Below are positions 44,610-64,000 of a stretch of 64,000 nucleotides of DNA, piece after piece; the first letter of the stretch is position 1; each line of letters begins with the position of its first letter. Location: positions 32,001 to 96,000 of the forward strand of contig CAVYKI010000006.1 in assembly GCA_963769025.1 (NCBI GenBank). The letters run 5' to 3'. The stretch is from an uncultured Verrucomicrobiae bacterium. GTDB taxonomy: Bacteria > Verrucomicrobiota > Verrucomicrobiia > Chthoniobacterales > Chthoniobacteraceae. Both the position numbers and the translations under genes were made by a program. Below the pieces are notes generated by a model that was not told the DNA's origin, searched no databases, and worked only from the letters and a program-made list of their open reading frames with translations.

Positions 44610-44666
44610 CTGACGCCGCAAGATTCGCCGTGCCATCCGGGCACGACGATGCGCGTCAGGCGTCAG
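44610..44666 (-). promoter_or_regulatory. Long stem-loop between the leader ORF stop and the TolC gene
   Basis: Minus strand CTGACGC-GCA-TCGTCGTGCC-(CGGAT)-GGCACGGCGA-..TGC-.GCGTCAG; no U-tract. Confidence 0.65.
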
Positions 44667-44992
44667 GCGATCTGAGGCGGATGATCGATGCCGAGCGGCA
44701 CCGCATCCGGGGGGAATTCATCCGTGTGAGACAGGAAGCCCGTCGGGACGAATGCCGCATCGGCCGCCCACAGTGTCCCAGCGGTGAGCGTGGTGAGGAC
44801 GACGTGGCAGATGCACTGGCAGCCGTCACCTTTGTCGGGGGCCTGATCGTGGTCATCGGGAGCGCAACCGGAGTGTTCCGTCTCCGCCGGCCCGTGCGAT
44901 CCGCAGCACTCGCCGAAAACATCCACGCCGAATCCCGTGAGCACGAACAGGGAGACGATGGCCAAGAAAACGCTGGAGCGGAGGAATCGCAA
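44663..44992 (-). CDS. Small signal-bearing Cys/His-rich leader protein ending IDHPPQIA
   Basis: Hydrophobic N-terminus, ECCGSH...CQCICH, Pro-rich tail; start probably TTG at 44992 (track ORF starts at 45037). Confidence 0.78.
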   Translation of the reverse strand: MRFLRSSVFLAIVSLFVLTGFGVDVFGECCGSHGPAETEHSGCAPDDHDQAPDKGDGCQCICHVVLTTLTAGTLWAADAAFVPTGFLSHTDEFPPDAVPLGIDHPPQIA

Positions 44993-60199: not shown

Positions 60200-62904
60200 C
60201 TATTCGAGGAGGCGGCGGATTTTTTTGCGGGCGTGGTCGAGGGTGAATGGCTTCTGGATGAAGTCAACCAGCGGGTCATTTCCGAAGCGGCTCGCGACAT
60301 CCTGCGTGCTGTATCCGCTCATGATGAGCACGCGCAGATCGGGCCGCAGTTTGCGCAGTTCGCGCAGCGTCTCCTCGCCGTCCATCTGCGGCATCGTGAG
60401 ATCGAGAAAGACGAACTGCACGTCCCCGAGCGACGGGAACAGCGCCAGCGCCTCGCGCGCCATTGGTCGCGGTGATCGTCTGGAACCCGAGGAATTCCAG
60501 GAAGCGCGTGGCGACATTCCGGACGGTATCCTCGTCGTCCACGACGAGGACGAGCCCGCTGCCGCGCCAGTCGTCGGCCGGCGGGCCGGCAATCGGCGGC
60601 TGGCTCCGGCGACCTCGCCGGTGGCGGGGAGCAGCACGCGGAATCGCGTTCCGTGTCCCGGCTGGCTCGCGACCGTGAGAGCGCCCCGGTGGCCGCGCAC
60701 GATCCCGAGCACCGCGGCGAGCCCGAGGCCGCGGCCCGGTGAATTTCGTCGTGAAAAACGGGTCGAAGATCCGCTGCAGCACGTCCGGCTCCATGCCGCA
60801 GCCGGTGTCGCTCACTTCAAACCAGACGATAATTTCCCTCCCTCGCATCCGGCGAGGCATTCGCCTTTGCGAGCTCCGCCTGACTCAGCCAGCCGGTGCC
60901 GGTCGAGACGCACACGGTGCCGTCGCGTTCGCCGAGCGCCTCGCTCGCGTTGATGACAAGATTCATCACGACCTGGCGGACCTGCGTCACGTCTGCCAGC
61001 ACCGCCGGCAGCTCGGGTGCGGGCTTGAAATCGAGGCGCGCACGCTTGCTGATCGAGATGCCGAGGAGGTTCATCGTCTCGCGGACCAGCGCATTCATGT
61101 CGAACGCCTGCACGTCGAAGCGCCCCTTGCCGGAATACGCGAGCATCTGCCGGCACAGGTCCGCCGCGCGGCTCGCGGCCTTCTCGATCTGGTCGAGAAA
61201 GGCGTGCGCCGCCGAGTCCGGCGGGAGCTCCGCGGCGGCGAGGCTGGCGTTGCCGAGCACGCCCGTGAGCAGGTTGTTGAAATCGTGCGCGATTCCGCCC
61301 GCGAGCACGCCGAGGCTTTCGAGCTTTTGGGTCTCCTGGAGTTTCGCCTCGATGGCGCGGCGTTCCTCCAGCGCCCGCCGGCGTTCGCTGATGTCCCGGA
61401 AAAATCCATGCACGCGGATGCCGTCGCCCGTGTTCTCCGCGTTTGCGTTGAACTCGAAGGTGGCGACGCGGCCGTCGGCGCCGGCCATGTCCATCTCCAC
61501 GTTTTGGATGCGGCCTTCCACGGGCAGCTTCGCCAGCGTCTGCGCCGCCAGTTCGTGATGCCGGGGCGCGACGAAATCCAGATAGTCGTGCCCGACCAAA
61601 TCCGCCTGGTCCTCCGCCCCGAGGAATGTGAGGAACTTGTCGTTCACCGCGACGATCCGGCCGGACGTGTCGAGCTGCACGTAGCCGGTGTTCGTCGCGT
61701 GGATGAGCGTGTTCAGCAGCCGGTCCGAGGCCTGCAGCTTCTCCAGCGTCTCCACCGTGTAGGTGATTTCCTCCGCGAGCCGCAGGTAGGAACGCACGGA
61801 GCCGTCGGGATTCCGGAGCACCGAGTTCCACCACAGGCAGTGGATGACGCGTCCGTCCTTCGTGAGATTGCGGCAGCGCAGCGTATTGTGATCCTCGTCG
61901 CCACGGTCGAGCCGCCCGAACGTCTCCGCAGTGAACGCGGTTTCATCCGGGTGGATCGCATCCAGTTCCGCCAGCGTCCGGCCGATCGCTTCGCGCGATG
62001 TCCAGCCGAACATCTTTTCGGCGCGACCGGCCCATCGCGTGATCCGCGAGCTGGCGTCCATCTCGGCGACGAGCAGCAGCGAATTTTCCAGATGCTGCGT
62101 AAGCCTCAGGCGCGCGTCCGCGAGTTCGTCGGCGGCGCGTTTCATGTCCGTGACGTCGCGGGCGATCGCGATGAGTCCCAGCAGGCGCCCGCCGGTGTCG
62201 CGGAGCGGATACTTGCTCGTGAGGAACCATCCGGCCCGGCCGTCGGGATACTGGAAGCGCTCCTCGCGATTCACGATCGCCTCTCCGGTGCGCAGCACCT
62301 GCAGGTCGTCATCCAGGTAAGCCCGTCCAAACTCCTCGGGAAAACCAAGGTCGGTCGTCCGGCGTCCGAGCACCTGCTCATCGGGATATCCTGTCAGTCT
62401 CTGGTGCGCGCCGTTGACCATCACGTAGCGCGCCTCGGCGTCCTTCACGATGATGATGTCCGGGATTCCATCCATCACCGTGCGCAGGAGGTGGCGCTCC
62501 TCGGAGACGCGCTCGAATTTTTTGCGCCGCGCCGTGACATCGCGCATGCTCAGCAGCGTGCGATCCTCCCCGAGCGGCAGGGCCACCACCTCGCATGTTC
62601 CGGCTTCGCCGCCCTTGCGGAGAAAGGCCGTCTCGCCGTGCCATTGTGCGTTGCTCGCGAAGACCTGCTGGACGGCCGACGCGAGGCCCCGCACGGCGTC
62701 CGCGGATTGCAGCGCGTGAACCGACATCCCCTGAGCCTCGTCGGGCGACCAGCCGAAGACTCGCGTCGCCCCGCTGTTCCATTCGAGGATGCTGCCGTCC
62801 CGGCCCGCGACAATCACGGCTTCCTCCAGCAAATCGACAAGCGACTCTGTCGGCGGGCGTGTTGCCGCGATGCGCGTTGGCTGGCTGGATGGGGCGGGCG
62901 TCAT
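60200..62904 (-). CDS. Cytoplasmic multi-PAS hybrid histidine kinase (CckA-like HisKA-HATPase-REC), indels
   Basis: Four PAS-like blocks, [37 protein letters not shown]. Confidence 0.9.
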
Positions 62905-63038
62905 CGGAAGGCTCGGTGCGGCGCAAGAAGCAAACGGACTTACGCAGGAATGCAAGGGTGGACGCCCCGCGGCGCAGATGCCTGCCGGCTGACGTGTGGG
63001 ATAATAGCGTTTGAACGTTCCGTCGCTCTGGGTGACTA

Positions 63039-63413
63039 ATGGGTCGCATGCAATCCACCGCTGCCAGCCTGGTCGGGCTTTTCGTCGCCATTGCGATGAG
63101 CTTCGGTTCCTTGTCACTGCTGCCGGCAGGGGACTGCGGTGCGCGGGAAGCGCAACGTGCTTGCACGTGTTGCGTTCAAACCGCGTCAGACGGCTGCTGC
63201 GCTGCGCCGGAAAACCGCGCGCCCGCGCAGGAGCCAGCGGCGCCTTCCACCTCCGTGTCCGGGCAATGGCAGCCCGCGGCGCTCGCCCAGCGGCATCCGG
63301 TCGCGATTCTGCCCCCGGTGGATGCAGTCATTTTCCCGTCGGAGAAAGCCGGCCTTTGCGCCCGTGCAGACGGGCACACTTTCCAGTCGGTGAATTGCGT
63401 GTGGCGGGTCTGA
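63039..63413 (+). CDS. Small signal-bearing Cys-rich leader protein ending FQSVNCVWRV
   Basis: Hydrophobic N-terminus, C..CTCC..CC cluster, Pro/Ala linker; start 63039 or 63048. Confidence 0.72.
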   Translation: MGRMQSTAASLVGLFVAIAMSFGSLSLLPAGDCGAREAQRACTCCVQTASDGCCAAPENRAPAQEPAAPSTSVSGQWQPAALAQRHPVAILPPVDAVIFPSEKAGLCARADGHTFQSVNCVWRV

Positions 63414-63420
63414 GAATGCC

Positions 63421-63478
63421 TTGACGCCAGTGGTGTGCCCGGACGCGGCGAACGCCGCGCGGGCTGGGTGAACGTCAA
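63421..63478 (+). promoter_or_regulatory. Long stem-loop between the leader ORF and the CusB-like gene
   Basis: TTGACG..GCCCG..CGCGGC-GAAC-GCCGCG-CGGGC..CGTCAA nested inverted repeats. Confidence 0.65.
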
Positions 63479-63495
63479 CGCAATTTCCCAGACTC

Positions 63496-64000
63496 ATGAA
63501 AAAACTTCTCATCCTCATTCTCATCGCTGCCGCCGCCTTTGGCGGATGGTGGTTCGGCAGACACGGCCATTCACACGTCGTGACGCCCGCCGGACGCAAG
63601 GTCCTCTACTACCAGAGCTCCATGCACCCGTGGGTGAAAGTCCGACAAACCGGGCCGCTGCACCATCTGCGGGATGGAGCTTGCGCCTGTATTCGAGGGC
63701 GACGCCGGTTTCGATGCCGACTCGACGCTCATCACGCTGACCAAGCAGGGCGTCACCGTCACGGGTGTCGAGACTGCGCCCGTGGTGAAAAGGACCATCC
63801 GGCGCACCATCCGCGTCGCGGGAATGGTCGATGACGACGACAGCACGCATCGCCGGCTGAGTGCGACCGCGGAAGGGCGCATCGAGAAGCTCTTCGTCAA
63901 TTACGTCGGCGCCGAAGTCACCGCCGGGCAGCCGCTCGCCACGATCTACAGCCCCGCGTTGCGGAATCTGTTTGCCGATTACCCGCTCATCGCGCGCCAG
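63496..64000 (+). CDS. CusB-like RND periplasmic adaptor, 5' part (indel near 63640)
   Basis: TM anchor, YYQSSMHPW..KPGRCTICGMEL metal-binding motif, GRIEKLFVNYVG, GQPLATIYSP. Confidence 0.85.

Follow-up and report, generated by a model that had tools for sequence, protein, structure and literature searches.

A stretch of 64,000 nucleotides (nt) from an uncultured Verrucomicrobiae bacterium of the family Chthoniobacteraceae (GenBank assembly GCA_963769025.1, contig CAVYKI010000006.1, positions 32,001–96,000; hereafter the window) carries near its 3′ end a small open reading frame (ORF) for a Cys-rich, predictedly exported protein, followed by the 5′ part of a cusB-like gene for the adaptor of a resistance–nodulation–division (RND) efflux pump. 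Between the two lies a single nested RNA hairpin that takes in the stop codon of the small ORF and ends at the base before the start codon of cusB. A preliminary description of the window, made from its letters alone, had listed a TTGAAC box, a signal-like helix, a Cys cluster, a spacer, the tail FQSVNCVWRV and the CusB-like gene, all of which we find (Table 1); the hairpin alone had been misplaced, its start lying not 7 nt past the stop but within the final sense codons (63406), so that the stem contains the UGA. We compared this arrangement across 35 complete loci from the Chthoniobacteraceae, one sister family and metagenomes, and its recurrence goes well past what chance would give.

The intercistronic hairpin and the leader tail

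Folding of window positions 63400–63510 gives one nested stem (63406–63495; ΔG −45.3 kcal/mol, z −2.6), with 3 of 200 shuffled sequences folding as well. Its 5′ strand comprises the UGA with the one codon before it and ~8 nt after it; its 3′ strand consists of the 21 nt immediately 5′ of the cusB ATG. This placement recurs in the 26 genome loci, where the stem starts 0–6 nt before the stop and, at its other end, either falls 0–4 nt short of the downstream ATG or, in 4 loci, overlaps the first 2 nt of that codon, the intergenic spacer being 70–123 nt long. In an alignment of 23 sequences 92.0% of cells are paired and 11 of 27 pairs are compensatory; extending it to 33 sequences, including sister-family and metagenome members, gives 89.1% and 17 of 24, with 8 of the 10 pairs of the helix that holds the stop codon (helix 1) compensatory. 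The observed pairing and covariation were reached by none of 500 column shuffles and slid controls pair at 28–47%, the alignments being model-guided and the sequences related, so that the shuffle counts are not to be read as probabilities. MAFFT with RNAalifold aligned 16 divergent hairpins poorly (−3.7 kcal/mol), and the model-guided alignments were used instead. In the sister family the entire stretch after the UGA is rewritten (UCCAAGG/UCUUGGA for GAGAG/CUCUC) with its complementarity kept. Reverse-strand matches score 14–20 bits against 83–113 bits for the forward strand, and these low scores, together with the G–U pairs, argue for an RNA element rather than a DNA operator. On such comparative evidence we regard the hairpin as an RNA structure under selection.

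Two elements inside the hairpin are conserved in sequence. The first reads GGUGUGCCC in the window and G(G/A)GUGUG(C/U)C(C) across all subfamilies, many relatives carrying GAGGUG, a perfect complement of the anti-Shine–Dalgarno (anti-SD) sequence; the second is GGUGAAC (63467–63473). Far from any start codon, both could serve as a standby or protein-binding site. The apical part of the hairpin differs by more than 40 nt in length among loci. Rfam holds no match to the hairpin, its two chance-level hits (E 1.8 and 3.4) both lying elsewhere, and no T-tract terminator-like site was found in 62700–64000. Nor is there an SD-like sequence 5′ of the cusB ATG. Genome-wide, SD-like 4-mers precede 14.3% of 3805 long ORFs and occur in 15.1% of random windows, a count that is uninformative because proxy gene starts are unreliable in DNA of 65% GC.

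Three further features of the region were considered and set aside: pairing of the tail-coding region with the 3′ arm, seen by eye in the window alone and not kept in a paralog; bypassing as in T4 gene 60, since the 3′ arm holds the complement and not a copy of the take-off codon and the candidate landing codons are out of frame; and a mini-ORF within the hairpin as a conserved feature, being absent from the window and from other genera. As an observation in its own right, GAGGUG-UGCCC-AUG opens a mini-ORF of at least 9 codons in the hairpin of 5 of 12 loci of the window's genus, g1 (L010, L012, L013, L014 and L015).

The residues encoded just before the hairpin are the best conserved part of the protein. 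All 35 loci stop at UGA; Cys stands at position −5 in 34 of them and I, V, T or M at −4 in 33, position −3 is R (23), W (8) or F (4), and the last residue is I (22), V (12) or T (1), which yields the consensus C-[IVTM]-[R/W/F]-x-[I/V]-UGA. The preliminary description had proposed a terminal C-x-(W/F/L)-x-x-stop motif, which thereby holds in a more general form, and had named a tail variable among homologs as the outcome that would speak against its idea; instead, mean pairwise identity is 0.40 over the last 13 residues and 0.51 over the last five, compared with 0.33 in the Cys cluster, 0.22 in the linker and 0.18 in the segment before the tail. At the codon level, Arg(−3) is written CGG (9), CGC (6), CGT (1) or AGG (2) among the 26 genome loci, Cys(−5) is TGC or TGT, and position −4 uses eight codons for I, V, M and T. 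That Arg(−3) appears in four codons and is replaced by W or F alone indicates selection on the tail as a peptide. The last codon alone is clearly tied to the RNA, AUC/GUC covarying with U/C in the 3′ arm. The window tail, ADGHTFQSVNCVWRV, is free of Pro, and a PP pair within the last 15 residues is absent from all 26 Chthoniobacteraceae loci and present in 5 of the full 35, each of these being of the sister-family type.

A full-length alignment joins 34 distinct homologous proteins. In a numbering from the first ATG (124 residues) the Cys cluster comprises C33, C42, C44, C45, C53 and C54; its second CC never varies, and two or three further Cys are kept in at least 90% of the sequences. C42-T-C44-C45 formally contains C-x-x-C, the pattern that is conserved being C-x-CC...CC. 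From the last CC to the C terminus there are 65–72 residues (mean 68.2, s.d. 1.5; 35 loci), and the linker between, low in complexity, almost never changes in length. A Sec or lipoprotein signal peptide is predicted from hydropathy, inspection and an AlphaFold2 (AF2) helix at residues 2–22: the best 15-residue hydropathy window of the N terminus scores 2.0–2.9 in every alignment row, and other genera begin M-x-x-R-L-(L)n...A-A-C, which resembles a lipobox. That helix is the sole confident part of the AF2 model (34-row alignment; pLDDT 64.7, pTM 0.23), which adds a weak helix at 112–120; no globular fold is predicted for the protein. A complex prediction joining the mature leader (residues 26–121, 34 rows) with CusB (residues 25–400, 17 rows) returned a score of 0.00 against a mark of 0.32 and counts neither way.

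Table 1 Coordinates of the leader, hairpin and cusB-like gene in the window
Feature	Position	Strand	Basis or remark
TTGAAC box	63011–63016	+	putative −35-like element of the operon promoter
TGACTAAT, conserved second box, −10-like	63033–63040	+	overlaps first ATG (63039)
Small ORF, Cys-rich exported leader protein	63048–63413	+	121 residues and TGA; 124 residues if read from ATG 63039
Signal-peptide-like N terminus	63048–63128	+	hydropathy, inspection, AF2 helix
Cys cluster DCG...C-T-CC...CC, putative metal-binding sensor	63135–63200	+	alignment of 34 sequences
Pro/Ala-rich linker	63201–63371	+	length kept, sequence poorly kept
C-terminal tail GHTFQSVNCVWRV, conserved	63372–63410	+	tallies over 35 loci
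UGA stop, inside 5′ arm of helix 1	63411–63413	+	UGA in 35/35 loci
Nested intercistronic RNA hairpin	63406–63495	+	folding (ΔG −45.3), covariation
GGUGUGCCC, internal-loop/helix-4 element of hairpin	63432–63440	+	sequence conserved in all three subfamilies
cusB-like RND adaptor gene, 5′ part	63496–64000	+	membrane anchor, HMBD motif, barrel-sandwich domain; frame change near 63640

Distribution, upstream boxes and neighbouring genes

Searches with the leader protein found the family in 14 of 61 related genomes, in 12 of 29 of the same genus and in 10 of 401 at the level of the order, while a covariance model of the hairpin matched 21 of 151 family genomes in 5 of 29 genera. Among 11 new loci from the RNA search that were inspected, 10 have a small ORF whose product combines a signal peptide and a Cys cluster with a tail ending ...C-[VIT]-R-L-I-UGA. 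Applied to the order, a broader hairpin model matched 5 of 151 genomes. Beyond the family, one sister family gave a match, in 1 of its 15 genomes, and the remaining 14 families (120 genomes) gave none; the sister-family match is a true member, lying 5′ of a gene for an outer-membrane efflux protein (OEP). An 18-nt hairpin pattern scanned over metagenomes gave more than 120 stretches, of which 80 were fetched; 72 proved to be chance matches and 8 passed the model, all 8 carrying the leader ORF and tail. A search for related loci with 8 closer sequences returned 6 loci, all in genomes already found. One locus, L051 (G015:C3:36513-36598), is a deletion remnant: the leader signal peptide runs out of frame into the tail region, after which come the hairpin's 5′ half and the central part of a cusB-like gene.

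At the protein level a word-indexed search found 2 relatives of the window leader and an exhaustive search of 1.84 billion representatives 18 matches at E ≤ 0.001. Fourteen of these are proteins of 112–163 residues, 13 of them matching over most of their length and one (P0017) over the C-terminal half only; the other four (P0009 and P0014–P0016), long repetitive proteins matched through the Pro-rich linker, were dropped. The relatives are assigned to the Chthoniobacteraceae or, more widely, the Chthoniobacterales within the Verrucomicrobiota. Neither Pfam nor NCBIfam has a family match for the window protein (five relatives also lack a Pfam match at E ≤ 1), and a family profile finds no relative of solved structure in the Protein Data Bank (PDB). 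The nearest ESM Atlas clusters consist of unnamed verrucomicrobial hypothetical proteins; the nearest named families there, DUF8199 (47% of one cluster's members) and DUF6769, we treat as chance. In the literature we found no description of this verrucomicrobial leader family or of its tail.

Homologs start at the second ATG of the window (63048), giving a protein of 121 residues; the first, at 63039, overlaps the second upstream box and is probably not used. TTGAAC stands at the matching place in 11 of 12 g1 loci inspected, and GGGTTGACTAAG or GGGTGACTAAT is conserved 8–12 nt 5′ of the start codon in that genus, the TTGAAC and TGACTAA(T/G) boxes (window 63011–63047) together ending 8–12 nt before it. 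Other genera have TTGAC(G/C) at the TTGAAC position, then 17 nt, then GTTA(A/G)T-like hexamers. Since a scan for the sigma-70 consensus across 62700–64000 gave no promoter sites, a promoter role for the boxes is an inference. Because the second box overlaps ATG 63039, any 5′ leader ahead of ATG 63048 is probably very short, if there is one at all, and transcription from a promoter formed by the boxes may yield a leaderless or near-leaderless mRNA.

Downstream of the hairpin the 35 loci mostly encode a CusB-like adaptor with the HMBD motif (22 loci and L059), or an OEP (9 of 35). At two metagenome loci (L156:560-1012 and L104) the next gene encodes instead an unknown exported protein of 150 residues (MKT...KPLSYVGG...QENDETGH...), for which Pfam has no family. 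The remaining locus, L034, was assigned to none of these groups. In the window copy itself cusB changes frame near 63640 and near 64638, and the cusA-like region past the window end (65034–68374) shows at least 8 frame changes relative to a copy on another contig, C8. Intact ORFs of up to 5975 residues elsewhere in the genome mark these breaks as local; they represent either the decay of a duplicate (a pseudogene) or a local consensus problem. The C8 paralog (G000:C8:35762-36221, minus strand; loci L002/L008) shares 68% amino acid identity with the window leader, has the same hairpin and is followed by intact cusB-like (432 residues; HlyD_D23 E 8.9e-58, HMBD E 1.7e-9) and cusA-like (1108 residues) genes. 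The block duplicated on C8 also takes in the start of a histidine kinase. In the window this kinase, a divergently oriented PAS-PAS-HisKA-HATPase-receiver hybrid (60200–62904, minus strand), is split over three frames (breaks at ~60712 and ~60817–60860). DNA homologous to the kinase region, at the DNA level only, lies 5′ of the leader in four other g1 genomes (G014, G025, G012 and G010) and is absent there in G001 and in other genera.

Likeness to CutF, CruR and other small exported proteins

CutF of Rhodobacter capsulatus, from the operon cutFOG, is reported to combine a Sec signal, a Cys motif and a proline-containing C-terminal stalling motif, with a stem-loop in the mRNA masking the next gene's ribosome-binding site (PMC9973294; bioRxiv 10.1101/2025.02.05.636593), and CutF-like genes are commonly found 5′ of genes for CusC, CusB or CusA (PMC9973294). 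The family described here shares the position as first cistron of a metal-homeostasis operon, a predicted Sec signal, a Cys motif in the mature part, a conserved C-terminal motif at the stop and a short intergenic stem-loop that shields the next initiation region; its protein is predicted to be poorly structured, as CutF is poorly structured or undetected as a protein. It differs in mostly lacking PP or PPP, in a Cys motif of the form C-x-CC...CC where CutF has CxxxC, in a spacer of ~68 residues compared with ~45, and in a hairpin that contains the stop codon and abuts an SD-less start, and sequence homology to CutF is not detectable. The survey that lists 5,334 CutF-like proteins demanded PP in the last 15 residues (PMC9973294), so that proline-free tails such as those of the present class were excluded by design; the five PP-bearing members of the sister-family type may be among the proteins it lists.

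CruR of Bordetella pertussis, the prototype of DUF2946 (PF11162), is defined by CXXC and RAPP, and the spacing between its metal motif and its arrest motif, 45 residues long, is described as conserved to within 1–2 residues and as mattering for regulation; reported to be poorly structured, it acts through Rho-dependent termination over an unstructured 162-nt intergenic region and represses an uptake system (PMC9426467). With this regulatory upstream ORF, whose nascent chain detects Cu by way of its Cys residues, the present family has in common a (lipo)protein signal, a conserved spacing from Cys motif to tail and little AF2 structure, whereas RAPP is absent and the spacing is 65–72 residues. 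PF11162 has no match at E ≤ 1 in the window protein or five relatives, its best match in the whole genome (E 0.33) falls at another place, and hhalign against 11 verrucomicrobial DUF2946 proteins gives a probability of 28.7% with the signal peptide alone aligned. DUF2946 scores above cut-off in 9 of 401 genomes of the phylum and in none of the order sample, and its verrucomicrobial members carry the canonical C-x-x-C and (R/S)(A/G)PP motifs. As judged by sequence comparison, the family is thus outside the DUF2946 definition, yet it appears to match the CutF/CruR architecture feature by feature, in agreement with the general regulatory strategy envisaged in the preliminary description (PMC9973294, PMC9426467).

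That idea had been built on two occurrences in the window, the second being a minus-strand ORF at 44666–44980. The two sequences are unrelated, as had been claimed (BLASTP E 0.24), and their layouts are similar, but the likeness does not extend to the same detail. The 44.6-kb ORF has a signal-like helix, a CC...C...C-x-C-x-CH cluster and a tail with PP (...GIDHPPQIA), and so falls within the published, rule-based CutF-like definition, without a PF11162 match; its UGA stop is followed by a stable hairpin reaching to ~44590 (ΔG −59 for a 161-nt region, z −3.0), which ends ~75 nt before a TolC-like OEP gene (ATG 44529, minus strand).

Other small exported proteins are also encoded at this genomic position. 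In Cupriavidus metallidurans, quenching of the CzcCBA pump by periplasmic CzcI has been reported, as has a leaderless czcI2 (PMC10127602); CzcI and CzcI2 have been cited as CutF-like cases without PP (PMC9973294). Like them, the present gene encodes a small exported protein directly 5′ of an RND metal efflux operon and lacks a C-terminal proline motif, and its apparently near-leaderless start recalls czcI2. The function described for CzcI is one in trans, and NCBIfam gives no relevant match at E ≤ 1 for the window protein. A small exported protein encoded beside cusB is likewise found in cusCFBA, in the form of CusF, from which the present family is set apart by the lack of a PF11604 match and of a predicted fold. 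CusF relies on His/Met/Trp chemistry, whereas the present family is Cys-based.

A further comparison is with arrest peptides. Arrest at a UGA stop, with RF2, is known from PepNL and TnaC (PMC11890864), and SecM, VemP and MifM are monitoring-substrate arrest peptides that regulate the protein-export machinery (PMC7897499). This group and the present leader are alike in a targeting signal at the N terminus, a linker that varies and a conserved C-terminal tail, and a hairpin of the kind that a paused ribosome opens downstream is present here, arrest itself being a proposal. Unlike the present family, SecM, VemP, MifM, TnaC and PepNL govern protein export or tryptophan catabolism rather than metal efflux, and there is no similarity of tail motif.

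A possible coupling mechanism and its alternatives

The small ORF would be the first cistron of a copper/silver-type RND efflux operon and act in cis, as CutF and CruR do. A ribosome unwinds mRNA at its helicase site, ~11 nt 3′ of the P-site codon. Once GUC occupies the P site and UGA the A site, the 5′ strand of the hairpin would be unwound to about 63419, which covers all 13 pairs of the two outer helices and would free 63475–63495, the 21-nt segment just 5′ of the cusB start codon. Helix 1 would be melted by no ribosome other than one at the last codon or the stop, so that cusB translation would be gated by leader termination, and a stem of −45 kcal/mol with no SD-like sequence implies that cusB initiation should depend on leader translation reaching the stop. 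From this ribosome geometry, cusB translation is probably coupled to leader termination. For the fuller reading we see the chances as about even: the small ORF would be a leader that acts in cis, and termination at its stop would open the hairpin and so permit translation of cusB, perhaps as a response to metal.

How metal might enter is a more tentative matter. When the ribosome stands at the stop, the Cys cluster would be ~68 residues from the peptidyl-transferase centre, by our estimate roughly the span of the exit tunnel plus the SecYEG channel, and so would just have passed through SecYEG. By analogy with CutF, the tail might then slow release at UGA from within the exit tunnel, with a dwell set by Cu(I)/Ag(I) binding or by disulfides at the Cys cluster, and that dwell would convert metal load into pump synthesis; we put this forward as conceivable, with the balance somewhat against it. 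We regard as doubtful the most specific version, namely that the family constitutes a proline-free class of termination-stage arrest peptide, in which RF2 release at UGA would be blocked or slowed by the tail, Cu(I)/Ag(I) binding or disulfides at a Cys cluster kept exactly ~68 residues from the peptidyl-transferase centre would adjust the block from across the membrane, and the waiting ribosome would keep open a hairpin in which the SD-less cusB start is otherwise buried; such a class would have evolved independently of DUF2946.

Several points weigh against the cis-acting leader. The tail, which lacks the PP/RAPP of CutF/CruR stalling, resembles no characterised arrest motif. The occurrence of UGA in 35 of 35 loci is not statistically strong, because the loci stem from three or four deep lineages and 65% of long ORFs genome-wide end in TGA. 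An AF2 model of low confidence built from 34 sequences is weak evidence of disorder. In the window copy the downstream cusB and cusA frames are broken, and the locus may be non-functional. Finally, the Cys cluster, the C-terminal Cys and the fixed length would also fit a small metal-binding or disulfide-rich periplasmic protein, and CzcI, in the same position before czcCBA and without PP, is reported to act as a periplasmic pump quencher (PMC10127602).

This last pair of points leads to the main alternative, which we consider unlikely and yet of substance, in which the protein is a stable periplasmic or lipid-anchored pump accessory (a Cu/Ag chaperone or a CzcI-like modulator) whose function accounts for the conserved tail and Cys cluster, and the hairpin serves plain translational coupling or stoichiometry, the nascent chain sensing nothing. 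A signal peptide with eight Cys, among them an invariant CC pair, would suit such a role, as would the lipobox-like A-A-C or S-A-C of several genera and a position 5′ of cusB or an OEP gene that matches that of cusF and czcI, the latter with its reported quenching of CzcCBA (PMC10127602). A fixed length is compatible with a small folded domain, yet no fold is predicted (pTM 0.23) and no match to CusF (PF11604), to any other Pfam or NCBIfam family or to a PDB structure was found. C-x-C-C also recalls the CxCC copper-cluster motif of CopG. Less easily accommodated are the exchange of R, W and F at −3 and the concentration of conservation in the last five residues, which would be unusual for a metal site and are typical of tunnel-interacting tails; so is a linker that, at 0.22 identity, almost never gains or loses residues. 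The constant placement of the stop within helix 1 is left unexplained.

An autonomous RNA element with no role for the tail is improbable, whether it be a site of RNase III/E processing or stabilisation by which mRNA levels of leader and pump are uncoupled, a site for a bound protein or a small RNA that senses a ligand. Long near-perfect stems are typical RNase III substrates. Within g1 the intergenic nucleotides are more conserved than the protein, and pairing alone does not explain the conserved unpaired GGUGUG and UGAA elements. The element is nevertheless locked between the stop codon and the next ATG in 35 of 35 loci and was found nowhere else in the 151 family genomes save in the remnant L051; it has no Rfam family match, and its apical length variation of more than 40 nt is unlike a ligand pocket. 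Decoding of the UGA as selenocysteine, or readthrough, with a SECIS-like hairpin is scarcely credible even though a stable hairpin follows the UGA at once, given that in-frame extensions past it vary in length between 1 and more than 148 codons (in one locus the next stop comes two codons on), that the spacer is a multiple of three in 14 of 25 loci only, that the conserved GGUGUG falls in different frames in different genera and that the positions after UGA covary with the 3′ arm and show no third-position wobble; as a coding extension selenocysteine is refuted, no conserved in-frame extension following the UGA.

Exported nascent-chain control of metal homeostasis has been described between 2022 and 2025 and has so far been defined by DUF2946 proteins with PP or RAPP. 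The present family has the same architecture with no detectable homology, and its RNA is unusually well defined, covarying and stop-containing. A cis-acting role for it would widen the class past the motif used to find it and would give arrest-peptide research a new candidate tail acting at a UGA stop. For annotation, the comparison gives a name to a family of 'hypothetical proteins' 5′ of cusB- and cusC-like genes in the Chthoniobacterales. In ~450 nt it also offers a compact system for how a periplasmic signal passes to a cytoplasmic ribosome, and, if the proposal is true, exported nascent-chain metal sensors would be a convergent solution.

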